This document shows, piece by piece, positions 947-7,390 of a stretch of DNA of 32,000 nucleotides (position 1 is its first letter; the number at the start of each line of letters is the position of its first letter). The translations under genes and the position numbers were made by a program. The notes under the pieces were generated by a model, which worked only from the letters and a program-made list of their open reading frames with translations, did no database searches and was not told the DNA's origin. Source of the DNA: Faecalibaculum rodentium (GTDB lineage Bacteria; Bacillota_I; Bacilli_A; Erysipelotrichales; Erysipelotrichaceae). Location: the NCBI RefSeq assembly GCF_001564455.1, contig NZ_CP011391.1, forward strand, positions 2,430,001 to 2,462,000, in the 5' to 3' direction.

Positions 947-1080
947 GGGCTGAGTCTGGCTGGGCCGGCATCGGCTGTGGCTGGCTTGCTGAAGCGGGCT
1001 GCGGGTTTGGCTGCAGGGACGGAATCTGGCGGGAACAGCCGGCGGGAATATCTGGAGGAATATACAGAAGGAGACTCAGC

Positions 1081-1916
1081 ATGCTGAAACTGGAACTGGT
1101 GCTGCAGGGAACGGGTCTGTCTCCTGCAGAGAGCGGTGTGAACAACTATGTCCTGTCCCATGTGGATGACCTGATGCACATGACGATCCGGTCGCTCGCG
1201 GAGGCGTGTTACACAACACCGACGACGGTGATCCGGTATTGCCGGAAGATCGGGTATTCTGGCTTCGAGGAATTCAAGATCCGGATCCGGCAGGACCTGA
1301 GCCGGTCTGATTTCGAGAGCTACAGCATCCGGCGGGGGAGAAGCCCGTGGAGGTGATCAACAAGCTGCGGGTCATGCACGCGGATGTCATCAGCAAGACC
1401 GTGGACCTGATTTCCATTGGCCAGCTGGAGGCGATCGTGCGGCGGATCCGGGAGGCGAGTGTGGTGGATATCATTGCGTTTGACGTGAATGCCGCCCTGG
1501 CGGATTATGCCAGCCAGTATTTCTTTCAGGTGGGCAAGATCTGCAATGTGTATGAGGACATCAACCAGCAGCTGATGCTGGCGATGTATGCCCGTCCGCA
1601 GGATCACGTGATTTTCATTCTCTCGCGCTCGGGTCTATCCCCGCGGGTACTGAAGACATGCCGGCAGCTGAAGGCCAACCGGCAGTATGCCGTGGCGGTG
1701 ACGGGGCAGCCGGGGGACGAGCTGAACTGTTACTGTGCACATGTACTCCATGCGCTGTTCAAGGATGATTTCCGGGAGATGGGGGATCTGACGTTTTTCA
1801 CCTCCGCGAAGTTTCTCTTCGACTGCCTGATCAATTTGTACTGCACGGCGAATTACGACGAGGTGCTGGAGAAGGAAAAGCGCTACAACGACCTGTACAT
1901 CGAGGAGCCGTTCTGA
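1081..1916 (+). pseudogene. RpiR/MurR-family transcriptional regulator (HTH_6 + SIS), split by a frameshift in a G5 run
   Basis: ORF 1081..1356 encodes the RpiR HTH (TIRSLAEACYTTPTTVIRYCRKIGYSGFEEFK). ORF 1347..1916, in another frame, encodes the SIS domain (ILSRSG...AVTG). The frames join across ggggg at 1334-1338; one extra G would give ...SIRRGEKPVEVINK... and a single protein of about 279 aa. Confidence 0.75.
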
Positions 1917-1923
1917 GAAGGAA

Positions 1924-1985
1924 AAACCGCCTGTGGCGGGGATGGACGAACTTGTGTCTGTCCCGCTGCAGGCGGTTTTTTTGTG
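1924..1985 (+). terminator. Rho-independent terminator after the RpiR gene
   Basis: aaccgcctg ... caggcggtt stem followed by a T7 run, immediately after the stop at 1916. Confidence 0.6.
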
Positions 1986-2019
1986 TTGTGTTCCGGGTGG
2001 TGTGGGGAGATTGGGAGAC

Positions 2020-2042
2020 TGCCGATGATGGATGGGAGGGGC
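2020..2042 (-). repeat. Copy 1 of the CCATCATCGGCA element (left inverted repeat of the ATPase module)
   Basis: Plus strand reads TGCCGATGATGGATGGGAGGGGC. The 12-mer is perfect, and 19 of 23 positions match the reverse complement of 3627..3649. Confidence 0.7.
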
Positions 2043-2128
2043 AGTTCCTGAAACGCGGATGGAGGGCTGCGCTGGGTCTGTACGATGAATCAGCTGCAGG
2101 ATGGTCCCGATAGGCGGATGGAAGGCTG

Positions 2129-2290
2129 TATCCGGCGGAATTCGTGCGGTGTATAACCGACAAAAGTGGTGGATTCCGGAAATTTGTCGGTTATAACCGA
2201 CAAAAGTATGAAAACGAGGAATTTTGTCGGTTATACTGGACAAAAATCAGATTCCGGGGAGTTTTGTCGGTTATAATAGATAAAATCAGA
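2129..2290 (+). repeat. Four tandem 40-bp repeats, each carrying a 22-26 bp palindrome (TTTGTCGGTTATAACCGACAAA core)
   Basis: Rows of 40 nt starting at 2131, 2171, 2211 and 2251 align column for column. Unit 2 holds a perfect 22-bp palindrome at 2183..2204. Palindrome centres fall at 2153.5, 2193.5, 2233.5 and 2273.5. The last unit contains TATAAT (2272..2277), about 50 bp before the ATPase ATG. Confidence 0.85.
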
Positions 2291-2327
2291 GTGCTGATGA
2301 CGTGTCCGGACTGAAAGGAGAGATGAC

Positions 2328-3539
2328 ATGATTCCAAGAGAACTATACATGAAGCAGATTCGACCATTTATCGATCAGGATGTCATCAAGGTTCTGACCG
2401 GTGTCCGACGGTCGGGAAAATCTGTGCTGCTTTCACTGATTCAGGAAGAACTGAAATCCAGAGGTGTTTCTCCCTCACAGTTTGTCCGTTTCAATTTTGA
2501 ATCCTTTTCCAATGAGAAGTTCAAAACTGCCGCATCACTCTACGAGGAACTCATGGACAGGATTTCTCATACAGATCAAAGAGTCTATTTCTTTTTTGAC
2601 GAAATCCAGGAAGTCAAAGACTGGGAAAAGTGCATCAATTCTCTGCGTGTAGACTGTGACTGTGATATCTATATCACCGGGTCAAACGCAAAACTGCTGG
2701 CAGGAGAACTGGCCACATACCTGGGCGGACGGTATGTGGAAATCCGGGTGATGCCGTTTTCTTTCGGTGAGTACATGACTGCACAGAAACAAAAGAACTC
2801 CCGGCTTTCTCTTTCAGAATCATTTCAGAACTACCTTGTGTTTGGCGGAATGCCCTTTCTGACCAATCTCTCAGGCCAGGCGGATTCTTCCCTGCAATAT
2901 CTGAAGGATATTTACAACTCTATATTGCTGAAGGATGTGATCCAGCGTCACAATTTTCGGAATACAGATCAGGTTGAGCGGATTATCCGGTATCTTGTGT
3001 CCAACATCGGCCAGCCATTCAGCGCTGCCAGCATTGCGAAATACATGAAAAATGAAGGACGCAAGATATCACGGGAATCCATACTGGAATACCTCAAAGC
3101 GTGTGAAGAGGCATTTCTGATTGAAAAAGTCCCCCGTGAAGACCTTGTGGGGAAAAAGCTGCTGACAGTGAATGAAAAATACTATTTGACAGACCACGGG
3201 TTCCGGGAAGCTCTTTTTGGATCCAATCAGCGGGATATAGGGCAGGTACTGGAAAATATTGTCTGCCTGGAGCTTCGGAGACGGGGGTTTGAGGTGCATG
3301 TGGGGAAGGCCGGGGACAGAGAAGTGGACTTCACGGCATCGCGCAGCGGGAGAAAACTGTATATACAGGTAGCGTATCTTCTTGCTTCGCCGGAAACCAT
3401 AGAACGCGAATTTGCGGTTCTGGAGAGCATTCCGGACAATTACCCGAAGCTGGTTCTCTCCATGGATGAAATTGACTTCAGCCGAAACGGAATCATCCAC
3501 AAAAACATTCGGGATTTCCTTCTCGAAGATGTGATTTGA
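2328..3539 (+). CDS. AAA+ ATPase of the AAA_14/DUF4143 (COG1373) family with a C-terminal PD-(D/E)XK-like domain
   Basis: Walker A GVRRSGKS and Walker B-like YFFFDEIQ are present. C-terminal LENIVCLELRRRGFEVHVGK..REVDF..YIQVAY resembles a restriction-endonuclease fold. AAAGGAGAG RBS. GC is markedly lower than in neighbouring genes (about 40 percent in sampled stretches). Confidence 0.85.
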   Translation: MIPRELYMKQIRPFIDQDVIKVLTGVRRSGKSVLLSLIQEELKSRGVSPSQFVRFNFESFSNEKFKTAASLYEELMDRISHTDQRVYFFFDEIQEVKDWEKCINSLRVDCDCDIYITGSNAKLLAGELATYLGGRYVEIRVMPFSFGEYMTAQKQKNSRLSLSESFQNYLVFGGMPFLTNLSGQADSSLQYLKDIYNSILLKDVIQRHNFRNTDQVERIIRYLVSNIGQPFSAASIAKYMKNEGRKISRESILEYLKACEEAFLIEKVPREDLVGKKLLTVNEKYYLTDHGFREALFGSNQRDIGQVLENIVCLELRRRGFEVHVGKAGDREVDFTASRSGRKLYIQVAYLLASPETIEREFAVLESIPDNYPKLVLSMDEIDFSRNGIIHKNIRDFLLEDVI

Positions 3540-3626
3540 CAGGTTGTATTTTTTATAAGAGGGACAAATTTCCAGACAGAATCCAGGAGAGCGCCTGTTG
3601 CAGGGGGTTCTCCTTTTTCGGTTTAC

Positions 3627-3649
3627 GCCCCTTTCCCCCATCATCGGCA
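3627..3649 (+). repeat. Copy 2 of the CCATCATCGGCA element (right inverted repeat of the ATPase module)
   Basis: Reads GCCCCTTTCCCCCATCATCGGCA. It lies in the convergent gap between the ATPase and cupin genes. Confidence 0.7.
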
Positions 3650-3723
3650 TGAATGAGTATGCGAAAAAACGGTCTGCGTTTTCCGCAAACCGGTTCGTGG
3701 GGGTCTGGTTCGGGATCGGTCTG

Positions 3724-4389
3724 TCACGCCTGATCCGGGAGTTCCATGAGGAGGGCCATGGTGAAGGGACCATCGGCGTAGACTCTGTGGCGGCCGCCGG
3801 CTGCGAACTTGAAGTTTTCGCCGGCATGCATCAGGTGTTCCTGGCCTTCGTAGCCAATGACGCCTGTGCCGTCGAGTCCAAAGAGCAGGGCTTCGCCGGG
3901 CGCAGCATGTTCACTCAGTCCGGTGCCTTCATCGAAGGACATGAGGACAAACTTGAGTCCGGGGTTTGCGGTGAGGTCCATGTTCACAATGCGCCCGGGC
4001 TGAACCGGCACACGGTCCTTGAGGACAAAGGGTTCATTCAGGGGCAGCGAGGAATTGAAGGACCCTGCGTGGAGCGTGAGCTCGAGATACACCACATCGG
4101 CATCGGATGCAAATCCCGCCAGGGTGCCGGGTTCCAGGATCAGGGCTTCGCCGGATTTCAGGGGAATTTCCTGTTTCTGCCGGGGTTCCTGTACGGTGAG
4201 GTTTCCGGAAAGGACCAGGATCAGTTTTGGCTGGCTGTAGGTCTCGGCACTGATGTCTGTATCTGCGGCCAGAGAGAATACCGTGGCGGTCGCGGCATCC
4301 GAGGCAATGAGGTCTCCGGAAATCGTGCATCCGGGGACGGGTTTGTATGTATCGGTGAGAGAGAACAGCTCTCCTGCTTTTGTGTTCAT
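3724..4389 (-). CDS. Bicupin (two cupin_2-like barrels) protein
   Basis: 221 aa with two repeats of the cupin pattern (G.LTV....Q.IPLKSGEALILEPG and G.GVIGYEGQEHLMHAGENFKFAAG..H). AAAGGAG RBS. Confidence 0.7.
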   Translation of the reverse strand: MNTKAGELFSLTDTYKPVPGCTISGDLIASDAATATVFSLAADTDISAETYSQPKLILVLSGNLTVQEPRQKQEIPLKSGEALILEPGTLAGFASDADVVYLELTLHAGSFNSSLPLNEPFVLKDRVPVQPGRIVNMDLTANPGLKFVLMSFDEGTGLSEHAAPGEALLFGLDGTGVIGYEGQEHLMHAGENFKFAAGGRHRVYADGPFTMALLMELPDQA

Positions 4390-4543
4390 GTTTCTTCACT
4401 CCTTTTTGTCCTGCCAATCGGGGATGGTCGCCGCCACGATCCGGTGGAATCTGGGGGCGGGCATCATCATCGGCGGTCCCTGGCATTTGGCCGGGACTGT
4501 TGTGTTTTACGGATTCATCATACTAAGATGCAGGGGACAAGTC

Positions 4544-5228: not shown

Positions 5229-5251
5229 GCCCCTTTCAGCCATCATCGGCA
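5229..5251 (+). repeat. Copy 3 of the CCATCATCGGCA element
   Basis: Reads GCCCCTTTCAGCCATCATCGGCA; 21 of 23 positions match copy 2. It lies in the convergent gap between the Crp and DUF438 genes. Confidence 0.7.
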
Positions 5252-6852: not shown

Positions 6853-7008
6853 CAGGAACCTCCTTTTTCTCTGTTGTACGGTTCCATGATAGGCGGATTC
6901 TGCGCCTTTGTATGTTGTTTTTCCAACGTTTTTATGATTTCTCCAACAAACTCTCGGCTGATTTCCTGTCCCCTGCCGATGGTGGGTGTTGCTTTCAGCC
7001 TGTTTCAG

Positions 7009-7042
7009 GGAAAACAAAAGCCGGTTTCGACAATAACCGGCC
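7009..7042 (-). terminator. Rho-independent terminator after the 96-aa gene
   Basis: Minus strand reads GCCGGTT-ATTGTCGA-AACCGGC followed by TTTTGTTTTCCC. Confidence 0.6.
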
Positions 7043-7099
7043 TCAGGCTGTCAGCGGTGAACGAGGACACATGTCCACCGGACTTTGTATGCATGTCAT

Positions 7100-7390
7100 T
7101 CAGCAGTACGCTCTGTTCATCCGGAGTCCATATCGTCCGGCTCCCATGTCCAGGGCCATTTTCCGGTAGACCTCTGCGTGAAGGCACTCCGGGTTGATGG
7201 CTGCCGCCTCTTCTTTTTTCTGCTCGGAAACACAGATGCGATCCATATAATACAGATATTCCCCGTGGTGGCAGGTGTAAATCATTGCGCCGATCATGCT
7301 GTCCAGCACGATGCAGTGCACGCCAATGGGCTTTCCGCTTCCTGTCACGATGGCTGCGAATTCTTCGGGTTCCAGGTGTACGATGGTCAT
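7100..7390 (-). CDS. Hypothetical small Cys/His-containing protein (96 aa)
   Basis: Strong RBS (AAGGAAGGAGA) precedes the ATG at 7390, and the gene has its own terminator. It has 5 Cys and several His (HC, CHH, RIC, PEC, terminal C). I do not recognise the family. Confidence 0.55.
   Translation of the reverse strand: MTIVHLEPEEFAAIVTGSGKPIGVHCIVLDSMIGAMIYTCHHGEYLYYMDRICVSEQKKEEAAAINPECLHAEVYRKMALDMGAGRYGLRMNRAYC

Follow-up and report, generated by a model that had tools for sequence, protein, structure and literature searches.

What kind of element is the 1.6-kb interval of low guanine-plus-cytosine (GC) content that holds a single DUF4143 ATPase gene and an array of palindromes in Faecalibaculum rodentium, and where does it end? 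The interval lies in a 32,000-nucleotide stretch of contig NZ_CP011391.1 that we call the window; all positions below are window coordinates unless a locus (L plus a number) is named. On one side it adjoins an RpiR-type regulator gene pair, which ends in a terminator, and on the other the terminator of a cupin gene that is read toward it. A preliminary description had taken the segment 2020-3649, flanked by 23-bp imperfect inverted repeats, for a small mobilizable cassette or a single-gene defense islet. We arrive at a different delimitation: the locus is probably a self-contained, autoregulated, single-gene accessory cassette that spans positions 2152 to 3618 of the RpiR(SIS)-cupin intergenic region and is not bounded by the 23-bp repeats.

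Empty sites were sought among contigs that encode exactly the SIS or the cupin protein. In 19 contigs of the species, the interval between these two genes is occupied and has an identical length of 1,880 bp, with at most one single-nucleotide polymorphism (SNP). In two others (L006 and L010), it measures 489 bp and the ATPase gene is absent. The gene is therefore accessory in this species, as its separation from housekeeping genes in the preliminary description had implied. The empty alleles match the window as far as position 2195 and again from 3562, with a CT between the two BLAST segments. The resulting indel, 2196-3561, starts inside the palindrome array, ends 22 nucleotides past the stop codon, and takes away two and a half operator units along with the whole gene, while both 23-mers, the half-site, the first spacer, one palindrome, and the terminator are kept. 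Because both 23-bp copies are kept without the gene, the variable DNA is 2196-3561, and the segment 2020-3649 is not present or absent as a unit. Two other ideas were rejected. A recent sweep of the module does not fit: the SNPs that distinguish occupied strains are patchily distributed, and invariance extends over all of 1001-4500 and is not confined to the module. Contig L003 does not provide a second insertion context, as its interval is identical in length and its differing downstream gene is a gene-calling effect at the contig end.

Sequence divergence around the indel indicates how the two alleles relate. Between the window and L006, the flanking genes are 99-100% identical (100% over 900 bp of the RpiR genes), and identity falls to 72-85% in ~200 bp to the left and ~100 bp to the right of the indel. 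Identity is 72% over 1996-2095, and the direct repeats at 2046-2069 and 2105-2128 lie in the most divergent part of the intergenic region. The terminator stem of the empty allele has been remodelled and is still paired. The occupied and empty alleles are old. As a separate observation, the direct-repeat units (1996-2150) appear shuffled between them.

The inverted repeat is present as first described, with 19 of 23 positions complementary (83%) and a perfect 12-mer core, and, again in agreement with that description, we found no target-site duplication at the repeats and no transposase. The idea that its sequence belongs to the module did not hold up. The core 12-mer TGCCGATGATGG recurs at 5240-5251 (minus strand) and 16537-16548 (plus strand), a G-variant TGCCGATGGTGG lies at 6974-6985 (plus strand), and seven matches with at most one mismatch were found where 0.24 were expected. 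We sampled ~42 kb, consisting of the window and of sequence that precedes it, taken from further contigs of this species. In this sample, TGCCGATGRTGG occurs seven times (two of the copies being on L004 at 6818 and 8599, both on the minus strand), always between genes and in both orientations, and four of the seven copies run on into N6-GGGGC. This repeat is not palindromic, has a density of roughly 1 per 6 kb, and has no Rfam match. The copy at 5240-5251 has ~26 nucleotides in common with the right copy at 3627-3649, and no copy other than 2020-2042 and 3627-3649 lies near a DUF4143 gene. In the empty allele, the left 23-mer is unchanged and the right one carries a few substitutions and a 1-nucleotide gap. 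It is solely through membership in a dispersed repeat family that the inverted repeat rises above chance.

These results bear on a transposon-like reading, in which a small mobilizable cassette would have the repeats at 2020-2042 and 3627-3649 as its termini. An inverted repeat with a perfect core does exist, the interval is low in GC, and the region in which occupied and empty alleles diverge more strongly (~1955-3667) roughly matches it. Nevertheless, the gene-less alleles retain both repeats around an indel of different extent, the same 12- to 23-mer is found at five other intergenic sites in the ~42 kb, unrelated to DUF4143 genes, and the repeats come with neither a transposase nor a target duplication. 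Homologous cassettes elsewhere also lack such repeats, and the unit conserved among them ends at the operators and the terminator. We consider this reading extremely improbable. The 23-bp repeats are bystanders rather than element ends and bound nothing mobile, and the annotation is corrected accordingly: no mobile element should be delimited at 2020-3649 on the strength of the inverted repeat.

If the repeats do not delimit the cassette, what accompanies the gene? The palindrome array reported earlier is real and consists of three 24-bp, TATA-centered palindromes plus a half-site with a period of exactly 40 bp (3.5 units). The palindromes start at -146, -106, and -66 relative to the ATG, and within the window the motif is confined to this locus. 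The array and the ATPase gene were said to be the sole contents of the interval; both are there, together with a pair of 24-nucleotide direct repeats and a terminator hairpin. We scanned a genome collection and obtained 80 loci with relatives 55-61% identical, of which 73 were left after removal of near-duplicates. The labelled hosts are Lachnospiraceae, Oscillospiraceae, Negativicutes, Erysipelotrichaceae, Atopobium, Eggerthellaceae, Bifidobacteriaceae, Fusobacterium, and a spirochete. In the majority of these 80 loci, the gene is preceded by TTTTATCAGTTATAACTGATAAAA or a closely similar sequence. When TATA-centered palindromes with at least 9 of 12 pairs were counted in the 73 loci, their density was 3.68 per kb at -250 to -24 and 0.032 per kb elsewhere, a 114-fold difference (Fisher p 2e-75). 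The start falls at -95 to -102 for 41 of 59 sites, with a mode of -98. Site centers located with a half-site matrix are 40 bp apart in 22 pairs, 80 bp apart in 8, and 120 bp apart in 3, with every other spacing occurring at most twice and control regions yielding none. Arrays are found in independent lineages, at -216/-176/-136/-96 in L097, -139/-99 in L086, and -130/-90 in L052 and L084.

An alignment of 35 upstream regions places these sites relative to the promoter. The left edge of conservation is a degenerate right-arm half-site ~40 bp 5' of the main palindrome, and the window half-site at 2152-2165 is its counterpart. The main palindrome stands just 5' of a TTGAgT -35 element, and 40 bp farther downstream comes a half-degenerate third site, flanked by the -35 and an extended -10 (TGnTATACT). 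The last site of the window, TTTTGTCGGTTATAATAGATAAAAT, has the same design as the promoter-overlapping site of the homologues (TTATAAatgtgaTATACT), and the window arms have changed from the family's ATCAG to GTCGG. No conserved site was found 3' of the stop codon in the homologues. Judged from these comparisons, the array is a family-wide upstream control region of such genes and not an internal feature of the transposon type, and the palindromes are probably the gene's own control sites. The conserved 40-bp phasing is a new result beyond the preliminary description, and we found no upstream palindrome array described in the papers retrievable on DUF4143, COG1373, or PDC-S01.

Palindromes of this type were also seen outside the family. 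On a viral contig (L112, IMGVR_UViG_3300045988_177205), two family-type palindromes, CTTTATAAGTTATATCTTATAAAA and TTTTATCAGTTATAACTGATAAAA, lie exactly 40 bp apart at 9477-9540, directly 5' of a peptidase_M15_4 (endolysin-like) gene, and an ATPase homologue is absent from the 12.6 kb of this contig that the analysis covered. Three JGI metagenome contigs (L108 434-493, L109 248-307, and L110 947-1006) carry the window's exact palindrome and a second palindrome 36 bp away inside coding regions for YhcG/DUF1016 PD-(D/E)XK nucleases, where they encode in-frame '..SVITDK..'-type peptides. The exact window palindrome was not found in viral contigs.

The protein itself is assigned by profile matches to the COG1373 / PADLOC PDC-S01 family. 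Pfam AAA_14 matches residues 20-150 with 113 bits (cut-off, 27; E value, 1.2e-32), DUF4143 matches residues 202-349 with 68.2 bits (cut-off, 28.1; E value, 9e-19), and the remaining Pfam match is a subthreshold AAA_22. The PADLOC profile PDLC04787 (PDC-S01) aligns residues 1-400 with profile positions 10-408 of 412 (E value, 8.1e-163). There was no match in NCBIfam, and neither sequence nor profile searches of the PDB found a solved structure. By sequence identity, the F. rodentium protein appears to be a rather isolated lineage, its nearest relatives outside the species cluster being at most 64% identical. One protein, P0002, seemed a closer relative by score and was rejected, as it contains an internal duplication and is 53-58% identical.

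An AlphaFold model based on an alignment of 70 homologues (predicted local distance difference test score [pLDDT], 76.8; predicted template modelling score [pTM], 0.71) begins with a P-loop AAA+ core, continues with a helical lid and then a winged helix, and ends in a PD-(D/E)XK-like domain, with low confidence in the first ~30 residues and in loop 121-133. The modelled winged helix spans ~213-290 (helices 213-225, 233-242, and 249-261, followed by a beta wing), and the C-terminal DUF4143 domain spans ~300-400, with an alpha-beta-beta-beta-alpha-beta order at 304-393. A survey of PD-(D/E)XK proteins lists the family (PMC3424549). The P-loop motifs are intact (Walker A, G25-K31-S32; Walker B, D91-E92), and G25, R27, R28, G30, K31, S32, F89, D91, and E92 are invariant in the 70 homologues, as are E315, D334, and Q347 of the nuclease-like domain. 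The best fold neighbors in the PDB are the archaeal AAA+ proteins SSO1545 and PABY2304, followed by DNA-bound Orc1/Cdc6, ORC, and DnaA and then by weak matches to the nucleases Can2, Cdn1, and VC1899. Template modelling scores (TM-scores) are low, at 0.23-0.36 (0.23-0.25 for the Orc1/Cdc6 and DnaA initiators), as expected because the query has several domains; a BFVD fold search returned weak, partial matches only. The protein is thus predicted to combine an Orc1/Cdc6-like AAA+ module with a winged helix and a nuclease-like domain.

What, then, binds the palindromes? No credible small open reading frame (ORF) exists in 1990-2327, where the only translations are artifacts of the repeats; the conserved unit also leaves no space for a further gene, and that no other gene travels with the sites points to the ATPase itself as the binder. 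The palindrome center GTTATAAC is nearly invariant, and the inner arms vary by lineage. At residue 250, where helix 3 of the winged helix begins, proteins whose sites have (T/A)CAG arms carry Pro; His goes with GCGG, and Arg (window) or Lys (L105) with TCGG. As an independent check, a scan with the window's exact 20-mer found two copies, one exact and one variant, in an unrelated metagenome. They lie directly 5' of the gene for another DUF4143 ATPase, which shares only 22% identity with the window protein and has Lys at the position aligned with 250. Over ~11 lineages defined at 80% identity, this covariation between residue 250 and the arms is suggestive support for self-binding. We infer that the palindromes are probably bound by the ATPase's own winged helix.

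Alternatively, the palindromes could be recognized by a host factor or fold into hairpins of DNA or RNA (for example, attenuators, or elements resembling repetitive extragenic palindromes or miniature inverted-repeat transposable elements [MITEs]), with no relation to ATPase binding. As single-stranded DNA, the array does fold into long hairpins (-30.5 kcal/mol; z = -7.15), although strong folding is a trivial outcome of any palindrome array. Gene-less palindrome units are also retained by the empty allele and by an outgroup species, and similar pairs stand beside or inside unrelated genes. On the other hand, the main palindrome lies 5' of the -35 in most homologues and so is not transcribed, the motif is not dispersed in the window, and the arms change along with the protein lineage. 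Moreover, the sites accompany the gene in hosts labelled as Bacillota, Actinomycetota, Fusobacterium, and Spirochaetales, and with hosts in several phyla a common host factor is unlikely. We give this alternative little credence.

Autoregulation through the ATPase's own winged helix is, on present sequence comparisons, the most likely mechanism. The winged helix would bind the palindromes as dimers, and cooperative binding across the 40-bp-spaced sites would feed back on the promoter. Judging by position, the upstream site might serve for activation and the one that overlaps the promoter for repression. In this way an ATP-driven nuclease that may be toxic would be held at a set level in whichever genome the cassette entered.

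We also asked what has moved between genomes. In an all-against-all BLASTN comparison of the 80 homologue loci, many pairs from different genera are 85-92% identical in nucleotide sequence with unrelated flanks, and the similarity usually ends ~97-138 nucleotides 5' of the ATG and 0-50 nucleotides 3' of the stop codon. Such pairs include hosts labelled Dysosmobacter/Oscillibacter, Lachnospiraceae, Eggerthellaceae, and Anaerovibrio. Some cassettes are nearly identical, such as those of L093 and L101 (96%). These alignments indicate that the unit of spread is ~1.35 kb and comprises palindrome, promoter, gene, and terminator. The earlier suggestion of a small mobilizable cassette was therefore right in spirit, in that a small unit has spread horizontally, and wrong about the unit and its ends. 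For the window itself, no close relatives outside the species cluster were available to define the cassette ends, identity being at most 64%. Among 137 neighboring ORFs with matches to 180 Pfam families, there is no recurrent partner. The adjacent genes are for the most part ordinary ones; a few encode YchF-type GTPases or MerR regulators, and resolvases are seen three times. No recombinase was found inside the unit or as a constant neighbor in the homologue loci, and the window gene, whose neighbors are SIS/RpiR and cupin genes, stands alone between terminators as a single-gene system.

Two recurrent settings were observed. The cassette lies directly 5' of a YchF-type GTPase gene in L040, L065, L076, and L079, and in L055 and L067 it directly follows a tRNA gene with no palindrome between. 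These positions may be preferred insertion neighborhoods.

Base composition is in keeping with horizontal transfer. The ATPase gene has a GC content of 0.465 and a GC content at third codon positions (GC3) of 0.525, compared with 0.56-0.59 and 0.68-0.80 in six neighboring genes, and it falls within the lowest 1.3% of 1,212-bp windows by GC. The contrast with the flanks that had been noted is thus real, although the value is 46.5% and not about 40%, and the gene differs from its neighbors as a foreign origin would predict. Low GC points to acquisition from a lower-GC donor, and on this evidence the gene appears to be an optional, horizontally acquired part of the species' gene content.

Family members occur in 242 plasmid records, and a further 18 records that hold them are phage or phage-like. 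The plasmid records, together with the DNA-bound Orc1/Cdc6, ORC, and DnaA among the fold neighbors and the phased repeats with an AT-rich center that adjoin the gene, suit a relic of an integrated replicon, in which an Orc1/Cdc6- or DnaA-like initiator would be accompanied by the iterated sites of its origin. Against this, neither Pfam nor NCBIfam gives a match to initiator families (Orc1/Cdc6 or DnaA), the TM-scores are low, and a nuclease-like domain at the C terminus is not a feature of initiators. The surroundings of the cassette are ordinary chromosomal ones in most of the 80 loci, and it carries no other replicon genes. An initiator-plus-origin relic can hardly be the explanation.

How the gene came to be present in some strains and absent from others depends on the junction. 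The right arm of operator 2, CTGGACA, is the sequence found at the empty-allele junction, and the GGACAAA at 3562-3568 repeats the GGACAAA of operator 2 (2238-2244); this repeat pair therefore marks a likely deletion or recombination junction. The same junction type is found in an outgroup species. In this sister species, whose cupin is 73% identical, Crp-cupin synteny is kept, and beside the cupin gene lie two palindrome units that have decayed and whose spacers are of the same types; there is no ATPase gene, and tblastn found no remnant of one. Its junction is of the empty kind (GGACAAAAATTTCTGGAC versus GGACAGAATTTCCAGAC). Two histories fit these data. In the first, an ancient deletion between the GGACAAA repeats was accompanied by loss of one 40-bp unit; the empty alleles keep a family-specific operator and terminator and look like a cassette shell. 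In the second, the gene entered a relic array after the species split, which fits the nonameliorated GC3 and the empty junction common to the outgroup. The outgroup's empty-type junction is compatible with both ancient loss and later gain and does not decide between them.

The spacers of the array also form a pattern. The 12-nucleotide spacers (2166-2177, 2206-2217, and 2246-2257) alternate between ..GATTCCGG.. and.TGAAAAC.AG., and both types recur in the outgroup relic array (L119, ~7040-7110), which suggests that the array grew by duplication of an 80-bp unit.

The junction also admits a reading in which the palindromes are recombination or homing sites, in addition to or instead of operators, and the cassette enters or leaves at the TATA center. 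The PD-(D/E)XK domain of its own protein, or a recombinase supplied in trans, could act as the agent, and the empty allele would be an unoccupied target. One alignment puts both indel junctions at TTATA (2191-2195 and 3553-3557) and leaves an intact palindrome at the empty junction, but TTATA is part of the palindrome consensus and other junction alignments are equally valid, including a deletion between the 7-bp GGACAAA repeats with loss of one 40-bp unit. A right-arm-only half-site forms the left edge of the unit conserved among homologues, as such a reading would have it; the right end is no more than a degenerate half-site, and homologues lack a conserved site 3' of the stop codon. Further points in its favor are the sister species, with its empty-type junction and no ATPase remnant, the nonameliorated GC3, which suggests that the gene arrived after that split, and the crossing of genera by a ~1.35-kb unit without an internal recombinase. 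Against it, the occupied allele contains intact palindromes, so that insertion leaves the site whole, unlike classical homing; the catalytic motif is noncanonical; and a fixed position relative to the promoter is how an operator behaves. We regard this reading as unlikely.

A broader version would make the palindromes both operators and DNA substrate, so that COG1373/PDC-S01 genes were self-mobilizing operator-plus-gene cassettes with a homing-like cycle and relic landing pads. If true, it would explain how a ~1.35-kb unit without a recombinase crosses between distant bacteria, why such genes are embedded in other loci, and why gene-less phased pairs occur in empty alleles, the sister species, and a phage-like contig. 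We rate it as distinctly unlikely.

We prefer the autoregulated accessory cassette, and several observations weigh against it. At the promoter, the -35 region of the window is poor, and a sigma-70 scan gave one weak match (ATGAAA-18-TATACT at 2208-2237), no more than shuffled sequences gave. Plasmid-borne relatives (40-46% identity) lack a clear motif, their upstream regions being too AT-rich to judge; an Ilyobacter plasmid relative, the sole case among the distant plasmid relatives, has a comparable TATA-centered palindrome by eye. The sister species and the empty allele keep palindrome units without the ATPase gene, which makes these units either long-lived relic operators or palindromes with a gene-independent role, and same-type pairs are also found away from ATPase genes. 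The covariation at residue 250 could result from kinship alone, as site and gene are physically linked. In the protein, Q347-V-A349 stands where the canonical (D/E)xK motif, with its lysine, would be expected, so nuclease activity is uncertain. The structure prediction that had been proposed as a check gives a winged helix and, with weak fold matches, a nuclease-like domain. Finally, a PDC-S01 representative was one of eight candidates assayed against T4, T5, and T7 in Escherichia coli B and was not among the four reported as protective (10.1101/2024.09.26.614923).

The last point concerns function. One paper attributes candidates such as PDC-S01 to a 'guilt-by-embedding' approach, describes this family as an ATPase joined to a PD-(D/E)XK domain, and ranks it fourth in frequency across prokaryotes (PMC12988326). 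PDC-S01 is also the most frequent individual locus in a rumen survey, and we found no positive phage assay for it in the literature. Any anti-phage or other defense role of the PDC-S01 gene is a candidate function only, as yet unproven. The description of the locus as a single-gene defense islet therefore stands as to a single gene of a catalogued candidate family; the defense part keeps candidate status and is not validated.

The features of the interval and its borders are collected in Table 1. An Rfam scan of the window gave a tRNA gene at 8932-9017 as its sole match and left the interval blank. Just past this tRNA gene begins a 5.7-kb segment (9066-14775) that is missing from the L006/L010 strain background. 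It contains a response regulator, a histidine kinase, an ATP-binding cassette (ABC) ATPase, and a 759-785-amino-acid protein without a Pfam match, and it looks like a BceAB-like module.

Table 1. Features of the RpiR(SIS)-cupin intergenic region and its flanking genes (window coordinates)
Feature	Position	Strand	Remarks
RpiR-type regulator gene pair	HTH_6 1081-1356, SIS 1347-1916		Pfam
Left copy of dispersed ~23-nucleotide intergenic repeat (TGCCGATGRTGG-N6-GGGGC)	2020-2042	+	Unchanged in empty alleles L006/L010
Two 24-nucleotide direct repeats containing GGATGG	2046-2069, 2105-2128	+	Repeat family D3
Outermost putative operator half-site, right arm only, TATAACCGACAAAA	2152-2165	+	
Putative operator palindrome 1, ATTTGTCGGTTATAACCGACAAAA	2182-2205		11/12 pairs
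Segment missing from empty alleles, replaced by CT	2196-3561	+	BLAST segments stop at 2195, restart at 3562
Putative operator palindrome 2, TTTTGTCGGTTATACTGGACAAAA	2222-2245		9/12 pairs
Putative operator 3, promoter proximal, TTTTGTCGGTTATAATAGATAAAA	2262-2285		Good left arm, degenerate right arm
-10-like TAAAAT	2281-2286		Overlapped by right arm of operator 3; promoter assignment inferred
Ribosome-binding site GGAG	2317-2320	+	7 nucleotides 5' of ATG; read from sequence
ATPase gene, 403 amino acids	2328-3539	+	Pfam, PADLOC, AlphaFold model
Half-site-like TTATAAGAGGGACAAAT just 3' of stop codon	3553-3569	+	
Terminator hairpin and T-run of ATPase gene	~3586-3618	+	Kept in empty allele
Right copy of the dispersed repeat	3627-3649	-	Between convergent terminators of ATPase and cupin genes
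Cupin gene	3724-4389	-	Convergent with ATPase gene; Pfam

The locus matters beyond this species because PDC-S01/COG1373 is reported among the most abundant candidate systems and 'defense' genes in bacteria and archaea (PMC12988326, PMC13356809). The phased palindromes supply a well-specified DNA ligand with which binding, ATPase, and nuclease activity could be assayed in a widespread family, and the occupied and empty F. rodentium strains are a natural pair for phenotype tests in a cultivable mouse-gut bacterium.

Comparison with known systems places the cassette more precisely. Like insertion sequence elements and MITEs, it shows an imperfect 23-bp inverted repeat around low-GC DNA that some strains have and others lack; unlike them, the repeats lie off the indel boundaries, are kept in empty sites, and belong to a dispersed repeat, with no transposase and no target duplication at the repeats. 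With archaeal Orc1/Cdc6 and its origin recognition box (ORB) repeats, and with DnaA and its DnaA boxes, it shares the AAA+/lid/winged-helix order and iterated sites that adjoin the protein's own gene; it differs in lacking membership at the sequence level, in its extra PD-(D/E)XK-like domain, and in that the F. rodentium gene is dispensable and polymorphic. Free-standing homing endonuclease genes resemble it as nuclease-fold genes present or absent at a palindromic site, and on one reading the empty allele has an intact palindrome exactly at the gene position. However, one 11/12-pair and two 9/12-pair palindromes survive in the occupied allele, which would thus not be immune to cleavage, the catalytic motif is atypical, and a microhomology deletion explains the same data.

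In the C-protein/C-box circuits of mobile restriction-modification systems, tandem palindromic operators lie upstream of and overlap the promoter of a nuclease locus, a layout that suits positive-then-negative feedback travelling with the genes. The F. rodentium palindromes likewise lie upstream of and overlap the promoter of a horizontally mobile, nuclease-like gene, with two or more sites at fixed spacing and one over the core promoter, as in a C-box-like module. Here, however, the presumed DNA-binding domain is fused to the ATPase-nuclease and is not a separate small helix-turn-helix protein, the family has a 40-bp site spacing and up to 4-5 sites, and binding is a prediction. The closest counterpart is PADLOC PDC-S01, with which the cassette shares a near-full-length hidden Markov model match, the same domain pair, a single gene with its own promoter and terminator, and a patchy, horizontally spread distribution; the F. 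rodentium member stands apart in its isolation (at most 64% identity), its GTCGG rather than ATCAG arms, and an array expanded to 3.5 units. In kind, the object is ordinary: an isolated member of a known, abundant candidate family with an expanded operator array.

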